From NCBI GenBank assembly GCA_000182565.2, contig KQ257464.1: a DNA stretch of 64,000 nt. One strand, 5' to 3'. The notes beneath the pieces were generated by a model. That model made no database searches. It was not told the DNA's origin and worked only from the letters and a program-made list of their open reading frames with translations. The stretch's first letter is position 1. Every line of letters begins with the position of its first letter. The position numbers were made by a program, and so were the translations under genes. Shown here piece by piece: positions 457 through 59,188 of the stretch. This DNA is from Spizellomyces punctatus DAOM BR117. Its lineage: Eukaryota.

Positions 457-975
457 TTTGTATCATAGGACCCACCAACTTCCAAAAGACCGTCCTCGGA
501 CGAGCAGAAAGTAGCTGCAGCACTTGATCAGTTGCGTAATTTTGAAAGTATATTAGTGGAAGAAAGGCGACGATTGGATCAAGAAATGTCAAAGACTGCC
601 AAATAATATTAATACGCCTTTTCATTCGCTACGAGGTGCCTCTGAACGTTTCAAAATCATGATAACTGTATCACATGTAGTCCATAGAATGTGCATGCGG
701 AACGACGCAGCTTTTGGTGTAGAACATAGCAGCTTTTTGGTTAGAGGACTATCTCGTATCTCGTCAAGTGAACTCTAATGATTCCATGCGGAGTCTGTTC
801 AGATACTGACATTCCAAGATGAAGCTACCATAGTGCGGAAGTGATTGAAATGGCACTAGGACCCATTATTATCCGGATTAATCCGGTTAGTCATATCGCA
901 TAATCAGAACCCCCTTCTATCGCTTAATGTTTTTTTTTTTTTTCAGCTGGACCCCATTTTGCCACAATCGAGGTC

Positions 976-983
976 TATAAAAG
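976..983 (+). promoter_or_regulatory. TATA box inside ghost copy 1 (also at 3246-3253 in copy 2)
   Basis: CTATAAAAG followed by a pyrimidine-rich tract, identical in both copies. Confidence 0.5.
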
Positions 984-1079
984 GGGGTCATTACTCCCTC
1001 TTCCCTCTTTCCTCTTTACCCATCCTCGACTCTCGAAGCATCTGCGCAACGCCCACGCAGCACTCTCAAGTCCATCATC

Positions 1080-1314
1080 ATGAGAATGCCGCTCTGGTGC
1101 CGAGGACCTCGCCCTCCCAGCAAAAACAACATAACCCCTTGCAAACGCTGCTACTACTATATTGCTACGATCGCAGGTATGCATTATCTTTGTATTTTCC
1201 CACGCGGATTATCCAGTCTAATTATTCTGATCTACCTTAGTATCTGAACATCCTCCGACTAAAGAATTTCGGAATCAAGGGCTTAGTAGGATTTCTCTCG
1301 TGTGGTGGGCTTAG
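1080..1314 (+). CDS. Putative spliced 56-aa micro-ORF in ghost copy 1 (exons 1080-1176, 1241-1314)
   Basis: catcatcATG context; GTATGC...CTAAT...TTAG intron at 1177-1240; frame preserved in copy 2. Confidence 0.3.
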
Positions 1315-1399
1315 TTACCCGGTTAGAACAACCGTAATGTATTGCATGTGTAATTGGGCCTAGTAGTAGTTGGTTGGTTGTAAGGAGGGAATTACTTGG

Positions 1400-1489
1400 C
1401 TTTTCCGAACCAGTTGTCGCCGGTTTATTCCCTGGTGTAGTAGCTAGTGCCAGTTTCTGTCACCTAATACACTATCCAAGATCTCCGAC
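1400..1489 (+). ncRNA. Ghost omegaRNA 1 (scaffold ~1400-1474, guide from 1475 TCCAAGATCTCCGAC)
   Basis: CTTTTCCGAACCAGTTGTCGCCGGTTTATTCCCTGGTGTAGTAGCTAGTGCC aligns with the scaffold 3' of the Fanzor ORF (50931-50994); ends in CACTA. Guide length is inferred. Confidence 0.75.
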
Positions 1490-3063: not shown

Positions 3064-3098
3064 TTCCCACCAACGCAAATAAATACATATATACATAA

Positions 3099-3737
3099 AT
3101 TGATGGCACTAGAACTCATTATTATCCGGATTAATCCGGTTAATCATATCGCATAATCAGAACCCCCTTCTATCGCTCAAAGCGGTGAGGCATGCTAATG
3201 TATTTTTTTCTTTTTCAAACTGTGGTGAGGCGCATGCTGAAGGTCTATAAAAGGGGGTCATTACTCCCTCTTCCCTCTTTCCTCTTTACCCATCCTCGAC
3301 TCTCGAAGCATCTGCACAACGCCCACGCAGCACTCTCAAGTCCATCATCATGAGAATACTGCTCTGGTGCCGAGGACCTCGCCCTCCCAGCAAAAACAAC
3401 ATAACCCCTTGCAAACGCTGCTACTACTATATTGCTACGATCGCAGGTATGCATTGTCTTTGTATTTTCCCATGCATATTCCGAGTCTAATTCTGATCTA
3501 CCTTAGTATCTGAACATCCTCCGACTAAAGAATTTCGGAATCAAGGGCTTAGTAGGATTTCTCTCATGTGGTGGGCTTAGTTACCCGGTTAGAACAACCG
3601 TAATGTATTGCATGTGTAATTGGGCCTAGTGGTAGTTGGTTGGTTGTAAGGAGGGAATTACTTGGCTTTTCCGAACCAGTTGTCGCTGGTTTATTCCCTG
3701 GTGTAGTAGCTAGTGCCAGTTTCTGTCACCTCTACAC
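3099..3737 (+). mobile_element. Fanzor 'ghost' element, copy 2 (left TIR eroded)
   Basis: Direct repeat of 833-1472. CATA at 3094-3097, but the first ~11 bp of the left end (GTGCGGAAGTG) are missing. Right end ...CTCTACAC followed by TA (3738-3739). Confidence 0.85.
3350..3580 (+). CDS. Putative spliced 56-aa micro-ORF in ghost copy 2 (exons 3350-3446, 3507-3580)
   Basis: Same ATG, splice sites and stop as in copy 1. Confidence 0.3.
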
Positions 3738-3754
3738 TAAAAGTGCCAGCCCTG
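3666..3754 (+). ncRNA. Ghost omegaRNA 2 (scaffold ~3666-3739, guide from 3740 AAAGTGCCAGCCCTG)
   Basis: Scaffold homologous to 50931-50994; stems GAACCAG/CTGGTTT and GTGTAG/CTACAC can pair fully. Confidence 0.75.
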
Positions 3755-48418: not shown

Positions 48419-48867
48419 GGTTGATGAGGTTCGTATCTCAAGTGAACCCCGATTACAAAAGGGATTCGTTATGATGGGGGAGAGCCTACCCAGTTCTACC
48501 TACTTTATAAAACCAAGTTACTTGCAACACTGAAAAATTACAAGGTTTTTTTCTTTGATTTTGTTTGTTTGGCGGTTCACAAATGATCTATAGCTCACTA
48601 AAAACTAGCGTACTATACCCTTTACGCGTTTCCTCCAATTTTGTTCTTCTTCTGCTGGATTGGTGCTAGAATTCGGCTTTTGCAAAAAAGATGGGGGATT
48701 TTTGTATCATCAAAGAATGCCGTCGTTGTTCAACGAAAACGTGACAAGCACACTCTGGTGTGCAGTCCACCACGCCAAAGTTATCTGCCAAGATTTCTGC
48801 ACACCCAATACTGCGCGTACAAGGGCGGATCTTTGTTGGAACGTCACCGCGCGTGTGTGTATGCATA

Positions 48868-48898
48868 GTGCGGAGCCGATGGGTATTGGCACTAGTAC
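48868..48898 (+). repeat. Left terminal inverted repeat (~31 bp), preceded by TAM CATA (48864-48867)
   Basis: Its reverse complement GTACTAGTGCCAATACCCATCGGCTCCGCAC matches the visible part of the right end. Confidence 0.85.
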
Positions 48899-48972
48899 AA
48901 AGATTCCAACCATTTTAATCATAATTTTACTCGATTTAGACTCATGAACTATGGTTTGATCCAAAAAAATCC

Positions 48973-48979
48973 TATATAA
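48973..48979 (+). promoter_or_regulatory. TATA-like box upstream of Fanzor
   Basis: TATATAA ~50 bp before atcatcATG. Confidence 0.45.
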
Positions 48980-49029
48980 GTTGTCGTGCCCATTTTCCCA
49001 GGCTTTCATCTTTTTCCACAGATATCATC

Positions 49030-50916
49030 ATGCCACCAAAAAAGAAGCAAAAGCTTGAAAACCCTACTTGCTTACATACCTGCAACAAGACTTCCTTTGC
49101 AAAAGCTTTCCTGCCAAACGACATCTACCGCCAACGGCTTTTAGATTACATCGCCATCATCCATCAACTTGCTGACCATGCTTCCCACGCTCTCAAATTC
49201 TACATCCTATCTGCACCATCCTTTCCCACGTTAGATCAAGATACAATCGAAGCGATTCTCTATCTTCTCAACAAAGGAGAGGCTTGGCAACCAAAAGCTG
49301 ATGCAAAGAAGGCGCTACGTGGATGCTTGGTGCCATATATTCGTCGGTACTGCCACATCGTCAGCTTCGTTCATCCAAATCTACAAAAAGAGCAGCAGTC
49401 AATCAATTACCTGACAGCGAGTATGATGACGAACCTGAAAGTCAACGTTCAAGAGCATTTCATGCAGATGCTCCTTCGGTATATCAATCTGCGGCTCGAT
49501 GTGAAGGGACAGAAGCAGCGACTGCCACTGAAAAGCGATGCACGGAAAGCTTTCTTTACTCGACTACGCTACTTAAAGTCAGTTTTTCTTTTTGATATCG
49601 TGCCCGAGTCGCTGGATGACTTGACCGCTGAAGAGAGTGAGCTTCTAGAAGAGATGTGGTCCTTCATTCCCCTTTCCGACCAGCCGCTCGCATATTCGGT
49701 TGCTGTTGACCCTCTCGCTTTCTTTCCTGCTTACTGCAAACTCTCTGTGCTGTATGAACGACATGGCTTCCGTCGGTTCAGCGCAATACCTCTTCGTCGG
49801 TCTCTGATTCAGTCCCATATTCGCATCGACACGGTCATCCTGTACCAGCATATCCTTTGCATCACGCGACGGGAAGCGGAAACTGTTGAAAAGGTCGACT
49901 TATGGTTGCGCATCTGTAATCTGCGGAACAAGGCTTTTAGATCTCGTCGTGGAATGTGTTTTGAAGGCTCGATCACGACAGACGGTACCTCGGTGTCAGT
50001 TTACTTGAAACATCCTGAAGCTGACAAGTATGGAAAGCGCAGCGGCGGAGGGAAAAAGTCAGCAAACACAATGGAGGCAGAGGTTAAAGCGCAATATGTG
50101 GAGAAAAACTTACCTGCTTGTCGAGTAGCAGAGAATGTTGTTGTTATCGACCCAAACAAGCGCGACATTCTCTACTGCCAAGACAGCATTGGTACAACAT
50201 TTCGCTACACCGCCAACCAGCGAGCCATGGAGACAGGTAGCCGTCGACAGCAAAAGGAACGACAGCAGATGAAGAAGGGGGAAATTGACCTCATAGAATC
50301 ACGTATCCCTAGCCACAAAACAATGAACCTCATGGATTTTACTCGCTACCTTCTCGTTCGCCGCGCGGATTCGGATCGTCGCAAGGAATTCTACTCACAT
50401 CCTGCCCACACGCGGTGGAAGTGGCACTCCTTCATCAATCGGCAGCGAAGCGAATCAGACCTCATAAGCGCCATGCGCAACAAATACGGTGAAAACTTTA
50501 CCGTTGTGATGGGTGATTGGAGCGACGCCGGTCGAACTGCCAGATTTCAGACCTCATCAAAGACAAAAGGTTGGCGCACCCTCTTTAAGCGGAACAGGAT
50601 CAACTGCTTCCTTCTCGACGAGTACAAGACCTCATCTGTCTGCCCTCACTGTTCATCCGATGACTTCCTTGAAAAAGGCTTCAAAACACGACCTCATTCA
50701 AGACCTTGGCGACGACGAGAAGGCAATGTTGAAAAAGTCCATGGATTGCTGGGTTGTACCAACCCTAACTGTTTGCAGCAAGACTGGACATCGGGAATGC
50801 GCTACTGGAACAGGGACACACTGAGCACCTGCAATATGCTGATGATCGTGCAATCAATTATGGATGGACACGGTAGACCAGAGGTGTTCAGCAGGAGTGT
50901 TCCAGCCGTAGCGTAG
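49030..50916 (+). CDS. Fz1: Fanzor1 RNA-guided DNA endonuclease (eukaryotic TnpB/Cas12 relative), 628 aa, intronless
   Basis: NLS-like PPKKKQK; TDG motif; RuvC I VVIDPNKRD (D374), RuvC II LLDEYKTSSVC (E531), zinc finger CPHC...CTNPNC, RuvC III WNRD (D596). Closely resembles SpuFz1 as I recall it. Confidence 0.96.
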   Translation: MPPKKKQKLENPTCLHTCNKTSFAKAFLPNDIYRQRLLDYIAIIHQLADHASHALKFYILSAPSFPTLDQDTIEAILYLLNKGEAWQPKADAKKALRGCLVPYIRRYCHIVSFVHPNLQKEQQSINYLTASMMTNLKVNVQEHFMQMLLRYINLRLDVKGQKQRLPLKSDARKAFFTRLRYLKSVFLFDIVPESLDDLTAEESELLEEMWSFIPLSDQPLAYSVAVDPLAFFPAYCKLSVLYERHGFRRFSAIPLRRSLIQSHIRIDTVILYQHILCITRREAETVEKVDLWLRICNLRNKAFRSRRGMCFEGSITTDGTSVSVYLKHPEADKYGKRSGGGKKSANTMEAEVKAQYVEKNLPACRVAENVVVIDPNKRDILYCQDSIGTTFRYTANQRAMETGSRRQQKERQQMKKGEIDLIESRIPSHKTMNLMDFTRYLLVRRADSDRRKEFYSHPAHTRWKWHSFINRQRSESDLISAMRNKYGENFTVVMGDWSDAGRTARFQTSSKTKGWRTLFKRNRINCFLLDEYKTSSVCPHCSSDDFLEKGFKTRPHSRPWRRREGNVEKVHGLLGCTNPNCLQQDWTSGMRYWNRDTLSTCNMLMIVQSIMDGHGRPEVFSRSVPAVA

Positions 50917-50930
50917 ATTGGTTAGATTAG

Positions 50931-50994
50931 CTTTTCCGAACCGGTTATCGCCGGTTCAATCCCTGGTGCGGGTGCTAGTGCAATACCCATCCGC
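50931..50994 (+). ncRNA. Fanzor omegaRNA scaffold (3' end and guide hidden by gap)
   Basis: Starts 14 nt after the stop; hairpin GAACCGG-TTATCG-CCGGTTC, then AATCCCTGGTGCGGGTGCTAGTGC-AATACCC; overlaps the right TIR. Confidence 0.88.
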
Positions 50995-51094
50995 NNNNNN
51001 NNNNNNNNNNNNNNNNNNNNNNNNNNNNNNNNNNNNNNNNNNNNNNNNNNNNNNNNNNNNNNNNNNNNNNNNNNNNNNNNNNNNNNNNNNNNNN
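50995..51094. other. Assembly gap (100 N)
   Basis: Run of N. Confidence 1.
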
Positions 51095-51268
51095 CGTGCT
51101 AGCCAAGGTGGCACCGACGGTTGTCCTTTATCCAAAAAGCATAGAGCCCATCATTTTATAAAATTCCAATACCCAACCAAAACCTCATGTAAAAAAATTA
51201 TCAAAATACAAAAAAATAATAAACCCTCCACACCACACTCACAAAAAAAGAAACACATGTAGCACCTC

Positions 51269-54200
51269 TTATCCTCCACCCCTCCTCCGCTCTTGCAAAC
51301 GTCCATTCATACCCCTGGACACTGGCGCCCACCGCGGTGAAAGCTGCCCAGATCGATTCGATCCCCGGTACGCAGTGGACTCATTGGAATATGTACTTGT
51401 GCTCTCCCCATAATACCGGCCTGAACTCGACACCCGCTGCCGGTCTTCGTACGTATCCCGTTCGGTGCGATCGTCTTCTCGTGTGTATGCGTCCCGAAGA
51501 CTTCGTCGTTCCCTCAACATTTCCCTCCCAGAGTCTCTAGCAGGCTCTCTGGCCACCTCCCACCCCCGCTCCTCCTCACCCTCCCGCACCCTCAAATGAT
51601 GCAAAGAAGCCACCGCTTTTGCTAACCTCTCATTCTCATTCTCCAAAGCCAATTTCGCATCTTTAAGCCGTATCACCTCCTCCTCCAATTCCCTCATACG
51701 TGGGTCATCCTGTTCAAGGTCCAACAAATTCTCCCAGCTGCCTACCGCGCTACGTGATAAAATCGGTTCCGTGTCACCACAGAGTTCTGCGAAAAAATGC
51801 TGTTGGCTTTCGGATAGGGCTTGTTTCCAGTTACGTGCTAGTATCCTATATCATTCGATCCAGTCAGTGATGGTTTGGCACAAACTCCTTTGTGTTTATA
51901 CACGTACCGCATTCGAATGAGACTCCTCACGACATCCACACATCTCTTCAACTTGATAACAGGTTTGTCGGACCCGACGCCAGAGGGTTCAAGCCCCACT
52001 CCTGCCAATGTCGCTCTGTGACTTTGTACAGTTAAAGAGAGATACAATTTCTGGTACTTGAGGTCTGCTCGCCAGGTCGACAGCCTGTCAACCAGTGCGC
52101 GGAGGTAGAGAACCTCGGATATGAGCTGACGGCACTGTTCCTTAATACTACAAAAAAAGCACCCCCACAGATTCGGTGAGTACGATATAAACACTCGTAA
52201 CAAACACAATACAAAAAGGGGAAGCTTACCGAGACATGTCCACCTTGGCCACTTTGTCATCATTCTCCCCGAGAACAGCCATCACATCATGCCCAGACCC
52301 AGATACATCCCCAATGGTGTTCTTCAACGTCTCTCGTAACACAACCATCATCTCCCGACTACTCTGCCTGATCTTTTTCAATTCCTTTTGCAACAAGCCC
52401 ACCTCATCTCGTAAGCCTTCATCTCCCGCATCGCTTGGCGACTGGGTTTTCGCATCAGAAGGATGCCGACGGTCGACTAGACGCCCTCGCTCCTTTTCGA
52501 GCCGCAACACTTGAATTTCAGCACTACGCCGTGCGTCTTCCAAATGCTGAACACGTCCATCAAGCCGTCTGATTCGGTCATCCTTCTCAAGTGAAACCTC
52601 TTCCAAATGTCGTATTTGAGTTTCACCTTGCAAGATTTTTTCTTCCAGTCGTTCCTTGACACGACGGAAATCATCCACAATGCGATCTCGCTCTCTTTCC
52701 AAAGCGTCCACAAGTCCTTCAAGTGCCTTGCGCTCAGCAGTGTGCATCTCTTCTTGTGCACTAGCTGCCTCTTGATGCTCGAAAAACTGATTGTTCAGCT
52801 TATCTTCCAGTAGTTTGACATCACTTCGAGCCATTTCCGCATCCTTTGTAGCGGCATCCAATAAATCCACAAGCTCATCAAATTCTTCTCGCATACGAGC
52901 CTGAGCTGCTCGAGCTTTATCTTGTGCATGCATAGCATCCCGCTGCGTTCGGGTGATCAACTCACGTAATGCGGTATTCGCTTCCAGTTCATGTGTCCAC
53001 ACTCTTCGAAGCTCGTCCAACTGTCGCTGGAGCACCTTTTCATTTCCGTTCTGCCGTTGCGTAGACGTTGATTCTTGCGTCATGGATTGGAGAGCATCCT
53101 TCAAGACTTGTGTTTGCATGGCATGGTCCTTGAGCAATGCGTGTGAGTTCTCCAATTGCCGCTGGTACTGCTCGGCTGCTGCTGCCTTTTCGTACAAATC
53201 GGCATACTCGCCAGGCGTAAGGTGATAATTCCCTTCATGGTCAGAGACAGGACGTCCTAATCCACCTTTTGCTGTCGTGTCAATTAATGCCCCCACGGAA
53301 CTGAGTTCCTTTCCAAGAATGACATGCTGATCCTCGACATCATGCAGCTTTGTAATCAAAATATTTAGATCGTCCAAAATCCGCTTTGGCAGGCGCTCAT
53401 AGCCGCCCACTGTCGTGCTGCGCAATAGATCCAAAAATCCATCTTTCCTAGCTACCAGTGCAGCAACCGCCGACTGATAGTCTCCGACAACACCAACCAC
53501 GTGAGAGACTAGGCTTCGCATGTCCGCGATAGAGCTTGTGGCCACGTTCCCGGATGGTGTACGCTTCGCAGGACGCCTAACACGGCCCCCACGAGCCGCT
53601 AACCCATCCTCTTCGTCGTCAGCCTCATATGTATCAGTAGTGTGCCCATCGCGGTTACTCCGCAAATAAAGAGCCTTTTCCTCTGCCAATCGGGCGTCAA
53701 AATCTGCCGCCATGTGTCGAATCTGAGCAGACTTGGCTTCCACCATCTCGCGCAGACCATCAACTTCTTTCTTGAGCTCGTCCCGTGCTATTGCGGCGTC
53801 TTCCAATTGCAATACCCTACTTTGAAGGGCAGTGATTTCCTCTTCCAGTTTGACCACGAGTGCCCGCTTGTCGTCTAGCTCTTCCAGTACCAAATTGTTC
53901 CTTCGTAATTCAATCTCGTTTTCTCGTAGTACTTCATCCGCTTCTCCAAGAGCTCTCTCCAAGCTCTGGACGTCAGCTTCTAAGGTACTCGTTCTGACAT
54001 GTAGCTCATCAATCATCCGCGTTTTTTCCCGTACTTCACTTCTCATTAGGTCTCTCTCCTCAGTCAGCATCGTTACACGATGTCGCAATTGGTCGACGGT
54101 TGCTGCTGTCACGGGCGGCTGAGATAAATCTTTGGAGTGCAGTGTGTCATGGCTCACAGGCGACGTTGCACTGGTATCTGACATCTGGCTCTCGGACACT

Positions 54201-57200
54201 CTTTGCAAATCACGTTTGAGCACCTCCAAGGCGCGTTCCTTGCCCTCCAACTTGAGTTTCACATCGGCCAGCTCCATGGCCAAGGCACTCGACCGGTCCT
54301 GCTCTTCCCGCAGCTTCTCCAGCGCATCGGGGAGGCTCGAGTCTAGGCTGTGGGCCTGAGTAGCCTCATATAGCTCTTTGCTGACGCGCTGAACTTCTTG
54401 TCGCGCATTCTCCAACTCGGTAACGAGTCGAGCAGCCTCATCCCGGCTTTGTTGAACCAGCGCATTATGGCTCTTCTCCATGACCTCCTTCTCGCGTTCA
54501 AGTGCATCAACAGTCGCCCGTAATTGTCGTGACTCTTCTTCGCGTGAGGCAGACAACTCGATGGCCTCATCGAGCTGTCCTCGCAGCTCTGTTTCCACCC
54601 CCTCCAATTTCTTAACCCGCTGCTCCAGCTTGGTCTTTGCTTGCGAGACCGCATCATGTTCGGCGCGTATCTGGTGCAGCCGTTGCTCTACTTCCCCAGC
54701 TGATGCGAGAGACAAGCTTTGCATCTCGACCATGTCTCGCATCTTCCGAGCCAAATCGTTGATGCGCACCAAGAGACGCGTTCGGCTTGCAGTCAGCTCG
54801 TCTAGAGAGCCTTCTGGCGTCGACTCCCAATCAACTGGTGATTGCTCACCTCCACCCACAGCCCCAACGACCCCCTTCATCACATTAACGATATCTTGTA
54901 GCTTCAGTTTCTCCTCTTCATCCCGCTCAGCGAAGCTCTTGATCATAGCGGATTTCTCCTCTTCATGCGCATTCTTCTGTTCACCCATTCTAGTTCGTAT
55001 TTCCTCAAAACTAGTCTGCAAATCCTCCAAGGCCTTCTGAAGTTCCTGTACAAGGGCCCTCTCTTCCTCTAGCAGGCGACCATTTTGCTCCGTACTCTTC
55101 GTCAGAAGCTCGATTTCAGCTTCCAATACAGTATTACGGTGCGCAAATTCATCTTTGGTCGTCTGCAAGTCAATTAGCACTTTGCCTCGTTCATCGAGCC
55201 TGCTTTCGTAGTCCTCTTCTAGCATTGAGATTGTTTCTTCCATTTCGACCAGCTGCCCTTGAAGGGTCTGTACGATGGCAGTACTTCGATCGCGCTCTTC
55301 CATAAGTGAATGCCGCTCCTCTTCCAGAGCAGTCACTTGCGCCTGCAGTTCCTGTGTTCGTGCTTCCAGCACATCCCGCTCAGATGCCAACGTTTCGCGC
55401 TCTTGGGTGATTCTCAAAACTTGGGCGCCTACATCCTCTAATGATGACTGCGCGACAGCATGCCGCTGCTCAGCTTCTTTTTGTGCGGCGGATAATACCC
55501 CACGTTCCTGCTCCATTTGCGCTTCCAGCTCAGGTATCATTTGTTCAAGGGCAGCAACCTTCTCAAGCGCATCTTCCCGTTCCTTCCGGATAATCTCTGA
55601 GACAGTTTCAAGTTCTTGCCGCGCGGCAACTTGCTCGTTTGATGCGGTTTCCAGATCTGTCAACTTTTGTGATATCTCAGCAACAGAAAGCTGCTCTCGC
55701 TCCAATTCCTCTTGTAGATAGGCGATATGCGTTTCCCTTGCATTAAGGGATTGTAGCAAGCGCTCATTCTCTTCGCTTATTTCTCCTACTCTGGCATTGA
55801 CCTCTTCGATTCTTTGTTTCCACACCGAACGCTCTTTCTCTTCCTCATCCTTCCTCTGCCGGAAAGTATCCACGGTCTCCTTCAAAGAATCTAATTCTCT
55901 AATCAAAGCAGCCCGTTCCTCTTCACGAATATCAACTTCCTCGCGCAATGCTCCCTTTTCCTCTTCCAGTGTCATCACACGGGCTTCTAACTCTGTCATT
56001 TTGACAACGCCCTCCTCCATGGCGGTATGAACTCGTTTTCTTTCTACTTCCACAAGCTCAATCTGAGCCTGCAGCTCGTCACATTCTGCTGCCATCCGCT
56101 CGCGCTCCTGCAGCGCTGCGTCGCGTTCTTGGTGCAGACGCTCGATTTCTTCTGTCCTTCCATCAAACTTCTCCATTATTCTAGCTATTCGATCGTGCAG
56201 GCCATCCCGTTCGGCGACAAGTTCGTTGACTTCCGCTAGCCTGCGGTCTCTCTCTTCAGTAACTATATCGAGCTCCTTTTTCAGTTCCTTCGCCTTGTCC
56301 CCGCCTTCAGATACTAAATGATTATACCGCTCGTTCGCCTCAGCAAGTTGGGCTCGCAACACCCTATCGGCTTCTGCCATAGCCATCTGGAGCATCTCTT
56401 TTTCCTCGTTCAACATATCTAACGCCGCTTCAGCATCCGCTAGACCGGCACTCAGCTCCGTAACCTGTCGTGCAGCATTGTCTTTCTCCGTGGCGAACTC
56501 ACGAAGTTTGAGAACCAAGGCTTCTTTCTGAGCTGTTAGCGTTGCAATCTCTCTTTCGCGCGCAATTTTTTCTGGTTGCATGCCTTCAAGTAACTGTTCG
56601 AGTTCAGCTCTTGCAGCTACGACGGAAGCTAGTTGTTCCTGCGCTTCCATCAACTCTTTGATGGATTGGTCCCGCTGATCAAGTACCCCTTCAATTTCAA
56701 GGCTTCTTTCGCGGGTAATGGACGCAATAAGTTCCTCTCGTGCCTGAAGCTCCGCCTCCAACAAGCGCACACGGTCCTCCGTTGATTCTCTTTTCTGAAT
56801 CTCCTCCGCAAGTTGTTGTTGCAATGAATGGACTTCAACAGTCAACTCTTCCGCAGAAGCAGCCAATTGCTCTTCTTTCGCCGCATGCTCCTGAAGCTTC
56901 TGGTTCAAGGATTTGATGTCGTTGTCTTTTGCGGTAGATTCACTGGCTGAGCGGATTCGAAGATCTTCCAACTGTGCAGAGACTTCCTGGAGCTGTCTGG
57001 CCTTTTCGGCCAATTCGGCAGTAGCGTCATTCCGAACCACATCGAGCTGCGATTGTAAATCAGAGATCAAAGCTTGCCGCTCGTTCAACTCATCCATCAT
57101 CATCGACTGCGATCGGTGCAACTCCTCCTTATGGGTCGCGTCCACGCTAGATAATTCTTCAACCTTCCGTTCCAAGGCATCCTTTTCCAACACCGCGTCG

Positions 57201-59188
57201 GCCTTTTCTTTGGTCAGCTGAGTAATCTGCTTTTTCAGATCCGCCACTTGATCAGTTAAATCTCGCATGGTTTCCACGAGTGTGTTGGTATCTTCTGCTG
57301 CTCTCAACTCCCGTTCCTTGATGTTTTCCTTCATCAGGTCCATTTCAGTAAGGAGCTGCTCACGTTCCGTGCGTAAATATTCTACGTCTGATTCCAACTG
57401 TTGGAGTTTACTTTCAGCCTCAGCATTGGCCGAGAGCAATGTGGGGTACTCGTTCCGCACACGTTTCACCTCCTCCTCCAACTCACGTACTCGTATTGTC
57501 ATCGCTTCCTTTTCTCGTGTCGCAGCAGCGCTGCGCCCGCTCATATCCTCTAGCAGCTTCCGCATGTTTCCTACGACCGTGACGTGTTGCCGTCGTATTG
57601 CTTCATTGTCTTGAGCCAGTGTCTGAACTTGCATCTGTAGCTCGCCCTGTGTGCTACTCAGCTCTTCCATTTGCGATGCGTGGGCGTCACGGTCTGCCAT
57701 CAATGTCGCATTTTCGTCGCGTAATGTAGTGACCTCTGCCTTGCATTGCTCGTACTCTTCAGTGATGGCCTGCAGCTCCTCCTTCAGCTTTTGCACCTGA
57801 GAAGTCAATTCGTCTCGTTCTAAAACCAGATCAGCATCGGGCACTGTGGAGGGCCCACTAGACGCCGCTGTGGCAGCTTTGCTTGCTAACAGCTCGTTCT
57901 CCGTAGCAAGGTCGCCATGCGCTTTCTCTAACACAGCCAGCTGCTGCCTGATTTCCGTAATTTCGGACGCTTGCTCCTTGGTAGTTTCTTTGGCATTTGC
58001 AAGCTGATTGCGCAAGTCTTCGATCACTCCCGTTTGTTCTTCGGACGACGTGGCTGCTCCCTGCCCAGCCACCGCCTGCATCCGTTCCAGCTCGCCCCGT
58101 ACTTCCTCCAACTCTGTTGCTTGCTGCTGAATAGTATTTTGTGCACTATCCAGTTGACTTCTTGTCATCTCTAGATCGGCATTCAACTGGGCGCTGTCAT
58201 GATCTACAGATCCGGGTACTTCTGCCGATTGCAGCTGAGAAAGCTCCAACTCCAATTGCTTTATCTTACTCTCGCCCGCAAGCTTCTCCTTTCTAAATAT
58301 CTCCGCATCCTCCCGCATCTGCTGTATCATCTCCAGTGCTTCATCTGAATGTTGTTGTTGCTCCGTGCGCCCTTGTCGCAGATTTTCGTTTTCCTCCTTC
58401 AGCGCTTCCAGCTGCTGTGCCAGTGTGTCCGTTTCATCCAATCTGGTTCGCAGTTGCTGAAGCTCCCGACTAAGCTCGGTACGCTCAGCTTCTGCTTCTG
58501 TTGCAGCACTGCGAGCTTCTTCGAGGTGCGCTGTCAGTTCCGCAATCCGCCCGTCCATATCCGCTGCGACTTCCGCTTTCTCCTGTGGAACACCATGCAC
58601 CTCGAATTGTTTCATCTTCTCCTTGAGCTCCCGATTCTCGTTGGAAAGCTCCCGCATGCGTCTCGCCAAATGTTGATTGTCTGAAGCAAGCTCCCTTACT
58701 CGCTGTATCAGGTCTGGCTCGGCGGGTGGAGGTGGTGTAGCTATTCTTTGTACATTGGGAGGAAATGTGGGCACAGGCGAGCCAGATCTGGGTGGATCCG
58801 TTCGGTTTCGCAGACCTGTGAGGGTTCCCAGTGGCGACGCTGACCTGTTCCAAGACCGCATGAGCATCTTTCTCTCACTTAGAGCCATCCAGAAGAAATC
58901 TAACACATTCTACCACTCCACTTTCACATCCTAGACATACCTCTCATCAGCTGCGATACTGCTCGTGGATAACATACTTCCTGTTCGCGGCCGGCCGCCA
59001 GCATCCGCATGTAAATTCTCCACTGAGCTTTCCGGAGACACAACTCTCGAGTCGGGTGGCGACCCAGCCGTTTCGCTCGGCGTAGCACTCGTGGACCGTG
59101 GGAGGCCAGCAGCTCGTTGCTTCTGGTATTTTGCCAGCTTCTTTTTTGCTGCCGCGAGCTTTTGCTCGCGCATCGATGACGTGTACAT
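51269..59188 (-). CDS. Giant centrosomal coiled-coil protein with PACT domain (pericentrin/AKAP9/Pcp1-like)
   Basis: >2200-aa coiled-coil exon; N-terminal REQKLAAAKKKLAKYQKQR; C-terminal WRADLKYQKLYL...KLKRCVDVVRSLIRMR|ILARNW. Confidence 0.75.

Follow-up and report, generated by a model that had tools for sequence, protein, structure and literature searches.

A full-length Fanzor1 element of the SPu-1 set in Spizellomyces punctatus, with its right end cut by an assembly gap

INTRODUCTION

The first TnpB-like protein of a eukaryote was found in the genome of Spizellomyces punctatus by Bao and Jurka in 2013 (PMC3627910). Its element, SPu-1, was described as being about 2,100 bp long, with terminal inverted repeats (TIRs) of 33 bp and a TA duplication; 17 full-length copies were counted, nine of which had intact open reading frames (ORFs). 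Saito et al. 2023 reported 42 Fz loci in S. punctatus, 19 of them full-length and 23 partial, as well as 134 ghost loci, and put the mutual identity of the Fz proteins of this fungus at about 82% (PMC10432273). We analysed a stretch of 64,000 nucleotides (nt) of S. punctatus DAOM BR117 (contig KQ257464.1 of assembly GCA_000182565.2; ‘the window’ hereafter means this whole stretch), in which an ORF on the plus strand, at 49030-50916, codes for a Fanzor1 protein of 628 amino acids, and compared the locus with the systems already described.

The closest of these is SpuFz1, a 638-amino-acid protein from the same genome and the same element family (PMC10432273, PMC11423790). Its target-adjacent motif (TAM) is 5'-CATA-3', and the left end of the element is a 30-nt inverted repeat (IR) preceded by a conserved CA (PMC10432273); in the earlier paper the TA at the element ends is read as a target-site duplication (PMC3627910). 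The guide is 14-15 nt long, G17 of the omegaRNA is a base contacted by the protein, and the base of stem 2 also contacts the protein, while the distal C40-G70 part is dispensable (PMC10432273). The same source assigns D383, N385, E541 and D606 to the RuvC site, counting a Mg-binding asparagine among the metal ligands, and reports that the engineered change C310R raises activity and that SpuFz1 functions in human cells with scaffolds of four ghost loci. No transposase was found in any Spu-1 element (PMC10432273). The bacterial ISDra2 TnpB (IS200/IS605, as presented in PMC10432273) is alike in having a RuvC nuclease, an RNA transcribed across the right end and a TAM beside the left end; it is, however, much smaller, its omegaRNA contains a pseudoknot, and its element also encodes the TnpA transposase.

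RESULTS AND DISCUSSION

A complete Fanzor1 gene in an SPu-1 element

Our reading, to which we attach a probability of about 0.9, is that the locus is one SPu-1 (Spu-1) Fanzor1 element of S. punctatus, about 2.1 kb between its TIRs, with a single gene, free of introns, that codes for an omegaRNA-guided TnpB-like nuclease, and with a mechanism presumed by homology to be that of the sister copy SpuFz1. Its parts are as follows.

48864-48867, plus strand: CATA, a TAM-like motif, read from the sequence; the CA belongs to the flank, and the TA can be read as the opening two bases of the IR or as a TA target-site duplication
48866-48895, plus strand: left-end IR, 30 nt, complete; its reverse complement matches 50975-50994, and it aligns with the left IR of ghost element A (see below)
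48973-48979, plus strand: TATATAA, TATA-box-like, within the element some 50 nt ahead of the ATG; read from the sequence, promoter role conjectural
49030-50916, plus strand: Fanzor1 ORF, 628 amino acids, from ORF translation, Protein Data Bank (PDB) match, alignments and tblastn
50931-50994, plus strand: first 64 nt of the omegaRNA scaffold (single-stranded 5' CUUUUCC, stem-loop 1, linker, and stem 2 with its 5' strand and distal portion), from alignment to the ghost scaffolds and folding
50975-50994, plus strand: right-end IR, inner 20 nt only, the reverse complement of the left IR with one deletion and one mismatch
50995-51094, no strand: assembly gap of 100 N, into which the right end's tip, the guide and the real flank on the right disappear

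The ORF is a single uninterrupted frame of 628 codons without an intron (the coordinates take in the stop codon), and tblastn of its product against the 64-kb window found no second copy or fragment besides the ORF itself. In a search of all PDB chains the best match was 8GKH, a maltose-binding protein (MBP) fusion of SpuFz1 (also represented by 9CEU-9CEZ), with 1204 bits and E = 0 over residues 2-628 of the query and 396-1032 of the chain, so that chance similarity to Fanzor1 is not an issue; PpFz1 (4.2e-48) and GtFz1 (5.2e-10) matched more weakly. The deposited natural protein SPPG_07727 (P0003 in our alignments, 638 amino acids) matches the 8GKH chain without gaps at 1493 bits and was for this reason taken as the characterised SpuFz1. 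Aligned globally with it, the window protein is identical at 532 of 625 aligned residues (85%), and D374, N376, E531 and D596 fall on D383, N385, E541 and D606, which makes the split RuvC site complete. The cysteines C538, C541, C576 and C581 (CxxC ... Cx4C, in the NUC/TNB domain) are all present and are invariant, or nearly so, across the family; their assignment to the zinc finger rests on alignment, as the part of PMC10432273 used here names the motif in a figure legend without residue numbers. The N-terminus, MPPKKKQKLE, is lysine-rich and resembles a nuclear localization signal (NLS), and nine of the ten aligned relatives begin with it, P0011 being the exception. Judged by its sequence, the product is thus a full-length, intact Fanzor1 of the family of TnpB-like, omegaRNA-guided nucleases.

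A preliminary description, made from the letters alone, had announced an intronless 628-residue ORF with an NLS-like N-terminus, a complete RuvC triad (D374, E531, D596) and a four-cysteine zinc finger, and had recognised in it an intact Fanzor1 resembling SpuFz1 but distinguished from it by a shorter N-terminus and many substitutions. All of this holds. With respect to SpuFz1 the protein is 10 residues shorter: it is without six amino acids after KLE and shows small insertions or deletions elsewhere, and there are 93 substitutions, among them R96K, R419E, K483R, R550H and M607T. The metal ligands, the zinc-finger cysteines and the CATA at the left end are the same in both, as is the plan of the scaffold (5' CUUUUCC, stem-loop 1, 6-nt linker, stem 2). 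Compared by description with the founding Fanzor1 element SPu-1 and its protein SPu-1-1p (PMC3627910), the locus is alike in its length of about 2.1 kb, its single ORF of about 630 amino acids, its terminal inverted repeats and its TA ends, the prototype protein having 633 amino acids instead of 628. The eukaryotic coding of the gene is borne out as well: the exact protein is in EukProt, and the neighbouring ORF of 2220 amino acids, at 52226-58888 on the minus strand, matches SPPG_07328 from S. punctatus DAOM BR117 at 100% identity.

How much the protein differs from its sister copies was determined as the preliminary description had proposed, by comparison with SpuFz1 and the paralogues. Among eight near full-length deposited copies pairwise identity ranges from 82.5 to 88.6%, and for the window copy (P0001) from 83.0 to 88.6%; its identity of 83-89% to the others is, on these alignments, an ordinary inter-copy distance. 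Of the two closest deposited paralogues, SPPG_02771 (P0006, 605 amino acids, 89% identity) lacks as annotated the stretch that holds the first catalytic aspartate, and SPPG_09322 (P0049, 300 amino acids, partial; 90% identity over 291 amino acids) is an N-terminal fragment.

The ends of the element and the assembly gap

The left end agrees with the published description of Spu-1, the IR at 48866-48895 being preceded by CA at 48864-48865. At the right end only 78 known bases separate the stop codon of the Fanzor gene from a run of 100 N, a gap that the preliminary description had overlooked. Its statement that the gene lies inside TIRs is consequently borne out in full for the left end, where the IR is complete and carries CATA, and in part for the right end, where just 20 nt of the IR precede the N. 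In DNA run X1 a loose contig end that comes from a paralogue shows a right end finishing with the complement of the first bases of the left repeat and then passing into flank; from this and from the left IR we infer that about 9 outer nucleotides of the right IR are hidden by the gap. No contig of runs X1, X2 and X5 spans 50995-51094. With the assembly interrupted within the right end, the native guide of the window copy cannot be taken from the reference.

Between the repeats there is no transposase, the Fanzor ORF being the sole match there. One might still ask whether the gene has been domesticated by the host and has ceased to be part of a mobile element. Beyond the presence of an intact ORF between host genes nothing specific speaks for this, whereas the left IR with its CATA, the inner right IR and the omegaRNA scaffold have all been retained, and the family is multicopy in the genome, paralogue reads piling up on the window copy in every run mapped. 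We therefore regard domestication as extremely unlikely.

Two ghost elements and the omegaRNA scaffold

The preliminary description had spoken of two ghost guides in the window, and two ghost elements bearing omegaRNAs were found.

831-1474, plus strand: ghost element A, without a Fanzor ORF; CATA at 829-832, left IR at 831-859 (29 nt), 75-nt scaffold at 1400-1474
1475-1489, plus strand: guide of ghost A, the 15 nt after the right end; divergence from ghost B starts here
about 3100-3739, plus strand: ghost element B, homologous to ghost A throughout, its left IR without about 13 nt of the outer half; 74-nt scaffold at 3666-3739
3740-3754, plus strand: guide of ghost B, the 15 nt after the right end, diverging from ghost A

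Their length of about 640 nt exceeds the ‘around 550 nt’ given in PMC10432273. With the 628-residue protein as query, tblastn found no match in either. The stretch of ghost A that opens with the C of CUUUUCC and closes with the right end measures exactly 75 nt, as published for the scaffold, and U5, C6, C7 and G20 fall where they were published; it is this 75-nt scaffold, together with U5/C6/C7 and G20 of PMC10432273, that sets the numbering used here. The other canonical features were deduced from the numbered residues and nucleotides of that paper, from read differences and from loose contig ends. When folded, each ghost scaffold gives a 5' tail of 7 nt, stem-loop 1, a linker of 6 nt and a long stem 2, at the base of which the final nucleotides of the right end are paired.

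The 3' flank of the Fanzor ORF matches 1396-1450 and 3662-3716 in the window at 82-84%, and on this alignment 64 nt of a scaffold of about 73-75 nt are present in the assembly; the last 9-11 nt or so, which make up the 3' strand of the basal part of stem 2, fall into the gap together with the guide. The claim that the ORF is followed by an omegaRNA therefore stands for the 64 nt at 50931-50994 but not for the 3' end of the scaffold and the whole of the guide, which the gap conceals. With the guide gone and the base of stem 2 deprived of its 3' strand, no usable omegaRNA can come from the locus as assembled. A tRNA scan of the window returned 0 genes; the T-loop-like appearance of this 3' flank comes from stem-loop 1 of the scaffold.

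One base pair of stem-loop 1, between nucleotides 13 and 22, covaries, being G-C in the Fanzor copy (50943/50952) and A-U in ghost B (3678/3687); at the same pair ghost A has an A/C mismatch (1412/1421). At 3088-3112 ghost B keeps CATA and the inner left repeat after losing about 13 nt of the outer half, and its scaffold and guide are complete; it is probably immobile. At 975-990 and 3243-3258 the ghosts carry a TATA-box-like TATAAAAG, with which their best-conserved block begins, some 420 nt upstream of the scaffold; these motifs and the TATATAA of the Fanzor element may be internal RNA polymerase II promoters. After the motif of ghost A comes a short ORF (1080-1247, 55 amino acids), with a splice-donor-like GTATGC about 100 nt past its ATG.

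Proposed mechanism

The mechanism proposed for the window copy is drawn by homology with SpuFz1, the 638-amino-acid sister and the only copy for which omegaRNA- and TAM-dependent cleavage of double-stranded DNA has been shown (PMC10432273). An omegaRNA of about 90 nt would be transcribed across the right end, combining the scaffold of about 75 nt with 14-15 nt of flanking DNA as guide. The Fanzor1 protein would bind this RNA and recognise 5'-CATA-3' beside a sequence matching the guide, and the RuvC site (D374/E531/D596, with two Mg2+) would then cut the double-stranded DNA. Ghost A illustrates what such an RNA could do: an empty site would have CATA and then the guide sequence, an occupied site ACTA before the guide, and the omegaRNA of ghost A would, on this sequence and the TnpB model in PMC10432273, target empty sites only. 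For neither ghost guide did the window contain a second target at up to 3 mismatches. Given that SpuFz1 could work with the scaffolds of four ghost loci, it is plausible that the window protein could use in trans omegaRNAs made elsewhere, including those of the two ghosts.

Sequencing reads and expression

X1 contains the unique left flank (48524-48842) and four pieces of the ORF with 0 differences, and the sequence of the ORF is thus supported by reads, although X1 may be the very sample behind the assembly. Transcription was followed in RNA run X22, which was assigned by its species label and of which about 6% was read; the library may be end-biased, as 2069 of the 2084 mapped reads are first mates and coverage is heaped at transcript ends. 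Over 50925-51021 its depth is 240 with the first mate on the plus strand and 4.5 with the first mate on the minus strand. They stem mostly from other loci: before 50927 the sequence of 488 reads is unlike that of the window, and 313 of 390 have the ghost-type T at 50959. The scaffold family is thus strongly expressed, with a very small share at most falling to the omegaRNA of the window copy itself.

A second signal lies near the left end. First-mate-on-minus depth is 47-150 over 48888-49275, that is, over the untranslated region at the left end and roughly the initial 250 nt of the ORF, and is at most 7 further in. As a control for strand, the 3' part of the minus-strand neighbour (51216-51400) has its first mates on minus (18-21 against 0-1), while those of the omegaRNA region are on plus. 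The run thus looks forward-stranded, in which case the minus signal near the left end would be a family-wide antisense RNA that ends there; this strand call rests on one control gene, and most reads are paralogous, 1973 of the 2084 lying only partly on the stretch. A literature search for antisense RNA found nothing relevant.

Is the window copy active?

Several observations weigh against the reading given above, or at least against its extension to an active copy. The first concern the protein. Among the 48 positions named as contacts (catalytic, TAM, omegaRNA or heteroduplex) in the structure section of PMC10432273, 43 are identical to SpuFz1, including all four metal ligands; the five changes are R96 to K89, R419 to E410, K483 to R473, R550 to H540 and M607 to T597. 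R96 is the only one of six TAM contacts to be changed, and K at this site is a minority state, found in 3 of 16 copies. A local Pfam-A scan of the 628-residue protein gave 0 families at E <= 1, although precomputed annotation places PF26935.1 on all 47 listed relatives. As to the RNA, the assembly contains neither the complete right end nor the guide. The scaffold of the window copy has A at nucleotide 17 (50947), a base contacted by the protein in the SpuFz1 structure, where all of the X1 contig depth has G; it also appears, from one loose end in X2, to be without the canonical G22, which the ghosts lack too. At 50947 the plus-strand reads of X22 have G in 467 of 586 cases and C in 108, so that at most 11 show the A of the window copy. 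Over the body of the ORF (49276-50536) the plus-strand depth of X22 is at most 1.15, a figure to be read against the roughly 6% sampled and the possible 3'-end bias.

One explanation could be that the copy is open-framed but functionally inert, made unable to cut by its altered contacts, by the scaffold changes or by absent expression, having died recently and been kept similar by recombination among copies. The five altered contacts, among them the arginine that reads the first base of the TAM, fit this idea, and 43 identical positions out of 48 are no clear excess over the approximately 41 expected from an overall identity of 85%. The scarcity of reads with the copy's own base at 50947 and the very low sense depth across the ORF body point the same way, as does the finding that 23 of the 42 Fz loci of the genome are partial (PMC10432273). 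There is also the fact that the best-matching paralogue changes along the protein, so that gene conversion rather than selection may maintain the similarity. On the other side, 628 codons have stayed open without a frameshift, none of the four metal ligands or the four cysteines has been lost, and most of the differing residues are states common to other copies: in an alignment of 19 S. punctatus copies, E occupies the R419 site in 10 of 18 and T the M607 site in 11 of 13. Some annotated C-terminal tails in this alignment are frameshifted, which makes counts over its last 100 columns rough. Ghost scaffolds, which are without the canonical G22 too, work with SpuFz1 in human cells (PMC10432273), and in a run sampled to about 6% the short RNA of one locus among some 176 is hard to distinguish. 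An inert copy is in our view unlikely, though an explanation to be taken seriously.

Catalytic competence, by contrast, we hold to be reasonably probable on the sequence evidence. It is favoured because the frame, the active site and the zinc finger are intact, 43 of 48 contacts are identical and most of the changes are common to other copies; it is weakened by R96K and by the scaffold changes at two protein-contacted nucleotides.

The mosaic make-up of the protein was an observation in its own right. P0049 is 98-100% identical over residues 121-270, and elsewhere the best match shifts among P0002, P0013, P0003 and P0004, a pattern that suggests recombination or gene conversion among copies.

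A natural variant with other properties?

Another possibility is that the window copy is a natural variant with properties meaningfully unlike those of SpuFz1, for example in TAM stringency or in activity, and hence a worthwhile new enzyme. Two residues invite this thought: K89 at the site of the TAM-reading R96, rare among the copies as noted above, and R299 at the site where the engineered C310R raised the activity of SpuFz1. Moreover, a literature search for assays of copies other than the 638-amino-acid SpuFz1 found none. However, the copy's own left flank is still CATA and so gives no sequence hint of a changed TAM; most of the family (11 of 18 copies) has R at the C310 site, which is therefore not peculiar to this copy; and the class, structure, mechanism and editing use have been published for a sister copy that is 85% identical. 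Such a distinct enzyme seems to us rather unlikely. Narrower still is the proposal that the sub-lineage with K at the R96 site (P0001, P0006 and P0013), here with R at the C310 site, might have a relaxed or shifted TAM or a higher activity than SpuFz1; going by these residues we consider it improbable, but if true, the window copy would be useful as an editing scaffold.

The same positions tell something about SpuFz1 itself. Only 2 of 18 copies have C at the C310 site, so that C310R restores the family-majority residue, and D300 of SpuFz1 is likewise a minority state, V being found in 15 of 18 copies and as V289 in the window protein. At several positions, then, the published ‘wild type’ is atypical of the family to which it belongs.

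Relation to the copies already catalogued

That the class of the system was already described, as the preliminary description had conceded, is amply confirmed, since enzyme, structure, mechanism and editing use are in print for the 85%-identical sister. Its further suggestion of an uncharacterised natural variant overstates the novelty. The exact 628-residue sequence is already deposited in NCBI, NCBI nr, UniRef, EukProt and MetaClust, and it shares a cluster, represented by a fragment of 300 amino acids, with SPPG_09322 from S. punctatus DAOM BR117; the family was described in 2013 and catalogued and characterised in the same genome in 2023, and a divergence level of 85% identity is usual within it. 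With the exact protein deposited and the genome already catalogued for the Fanzor family, the window copy is not new: it is an ordinary, already known member of the described SPu-1 (Spu-1) Fanzor1 element set, and is almost certainly among the 19 full-length ones of the 2023 count. As class, element family, copy set of the genome, structure, TAM and ghost omegaRNAs have all been published, there is little discovery value in it. Its practical value is that of a natural variant for comparison with SpuFz1, of interest for R96K where the TAM is read and for its R where C310R was engineered.

Flanking sequences

A scan for bacterial-type promoters and terminators over 48700-49100 was uninformative, as it would be for a eukaryote. 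Exact look-up of five other ORFs of the window in the protein collection gave no match, and these are probably exons of spliced genes. On the right, the neighbour SPPG_07328, a large coiled-coil gene at 51095-58888 on the minus strand with a precomputed PF10495 assignment, is deposited as ‘partial’, a label that it probably owes to its 3' end abutting the same 100-N gap that cuts the Fanzor element.

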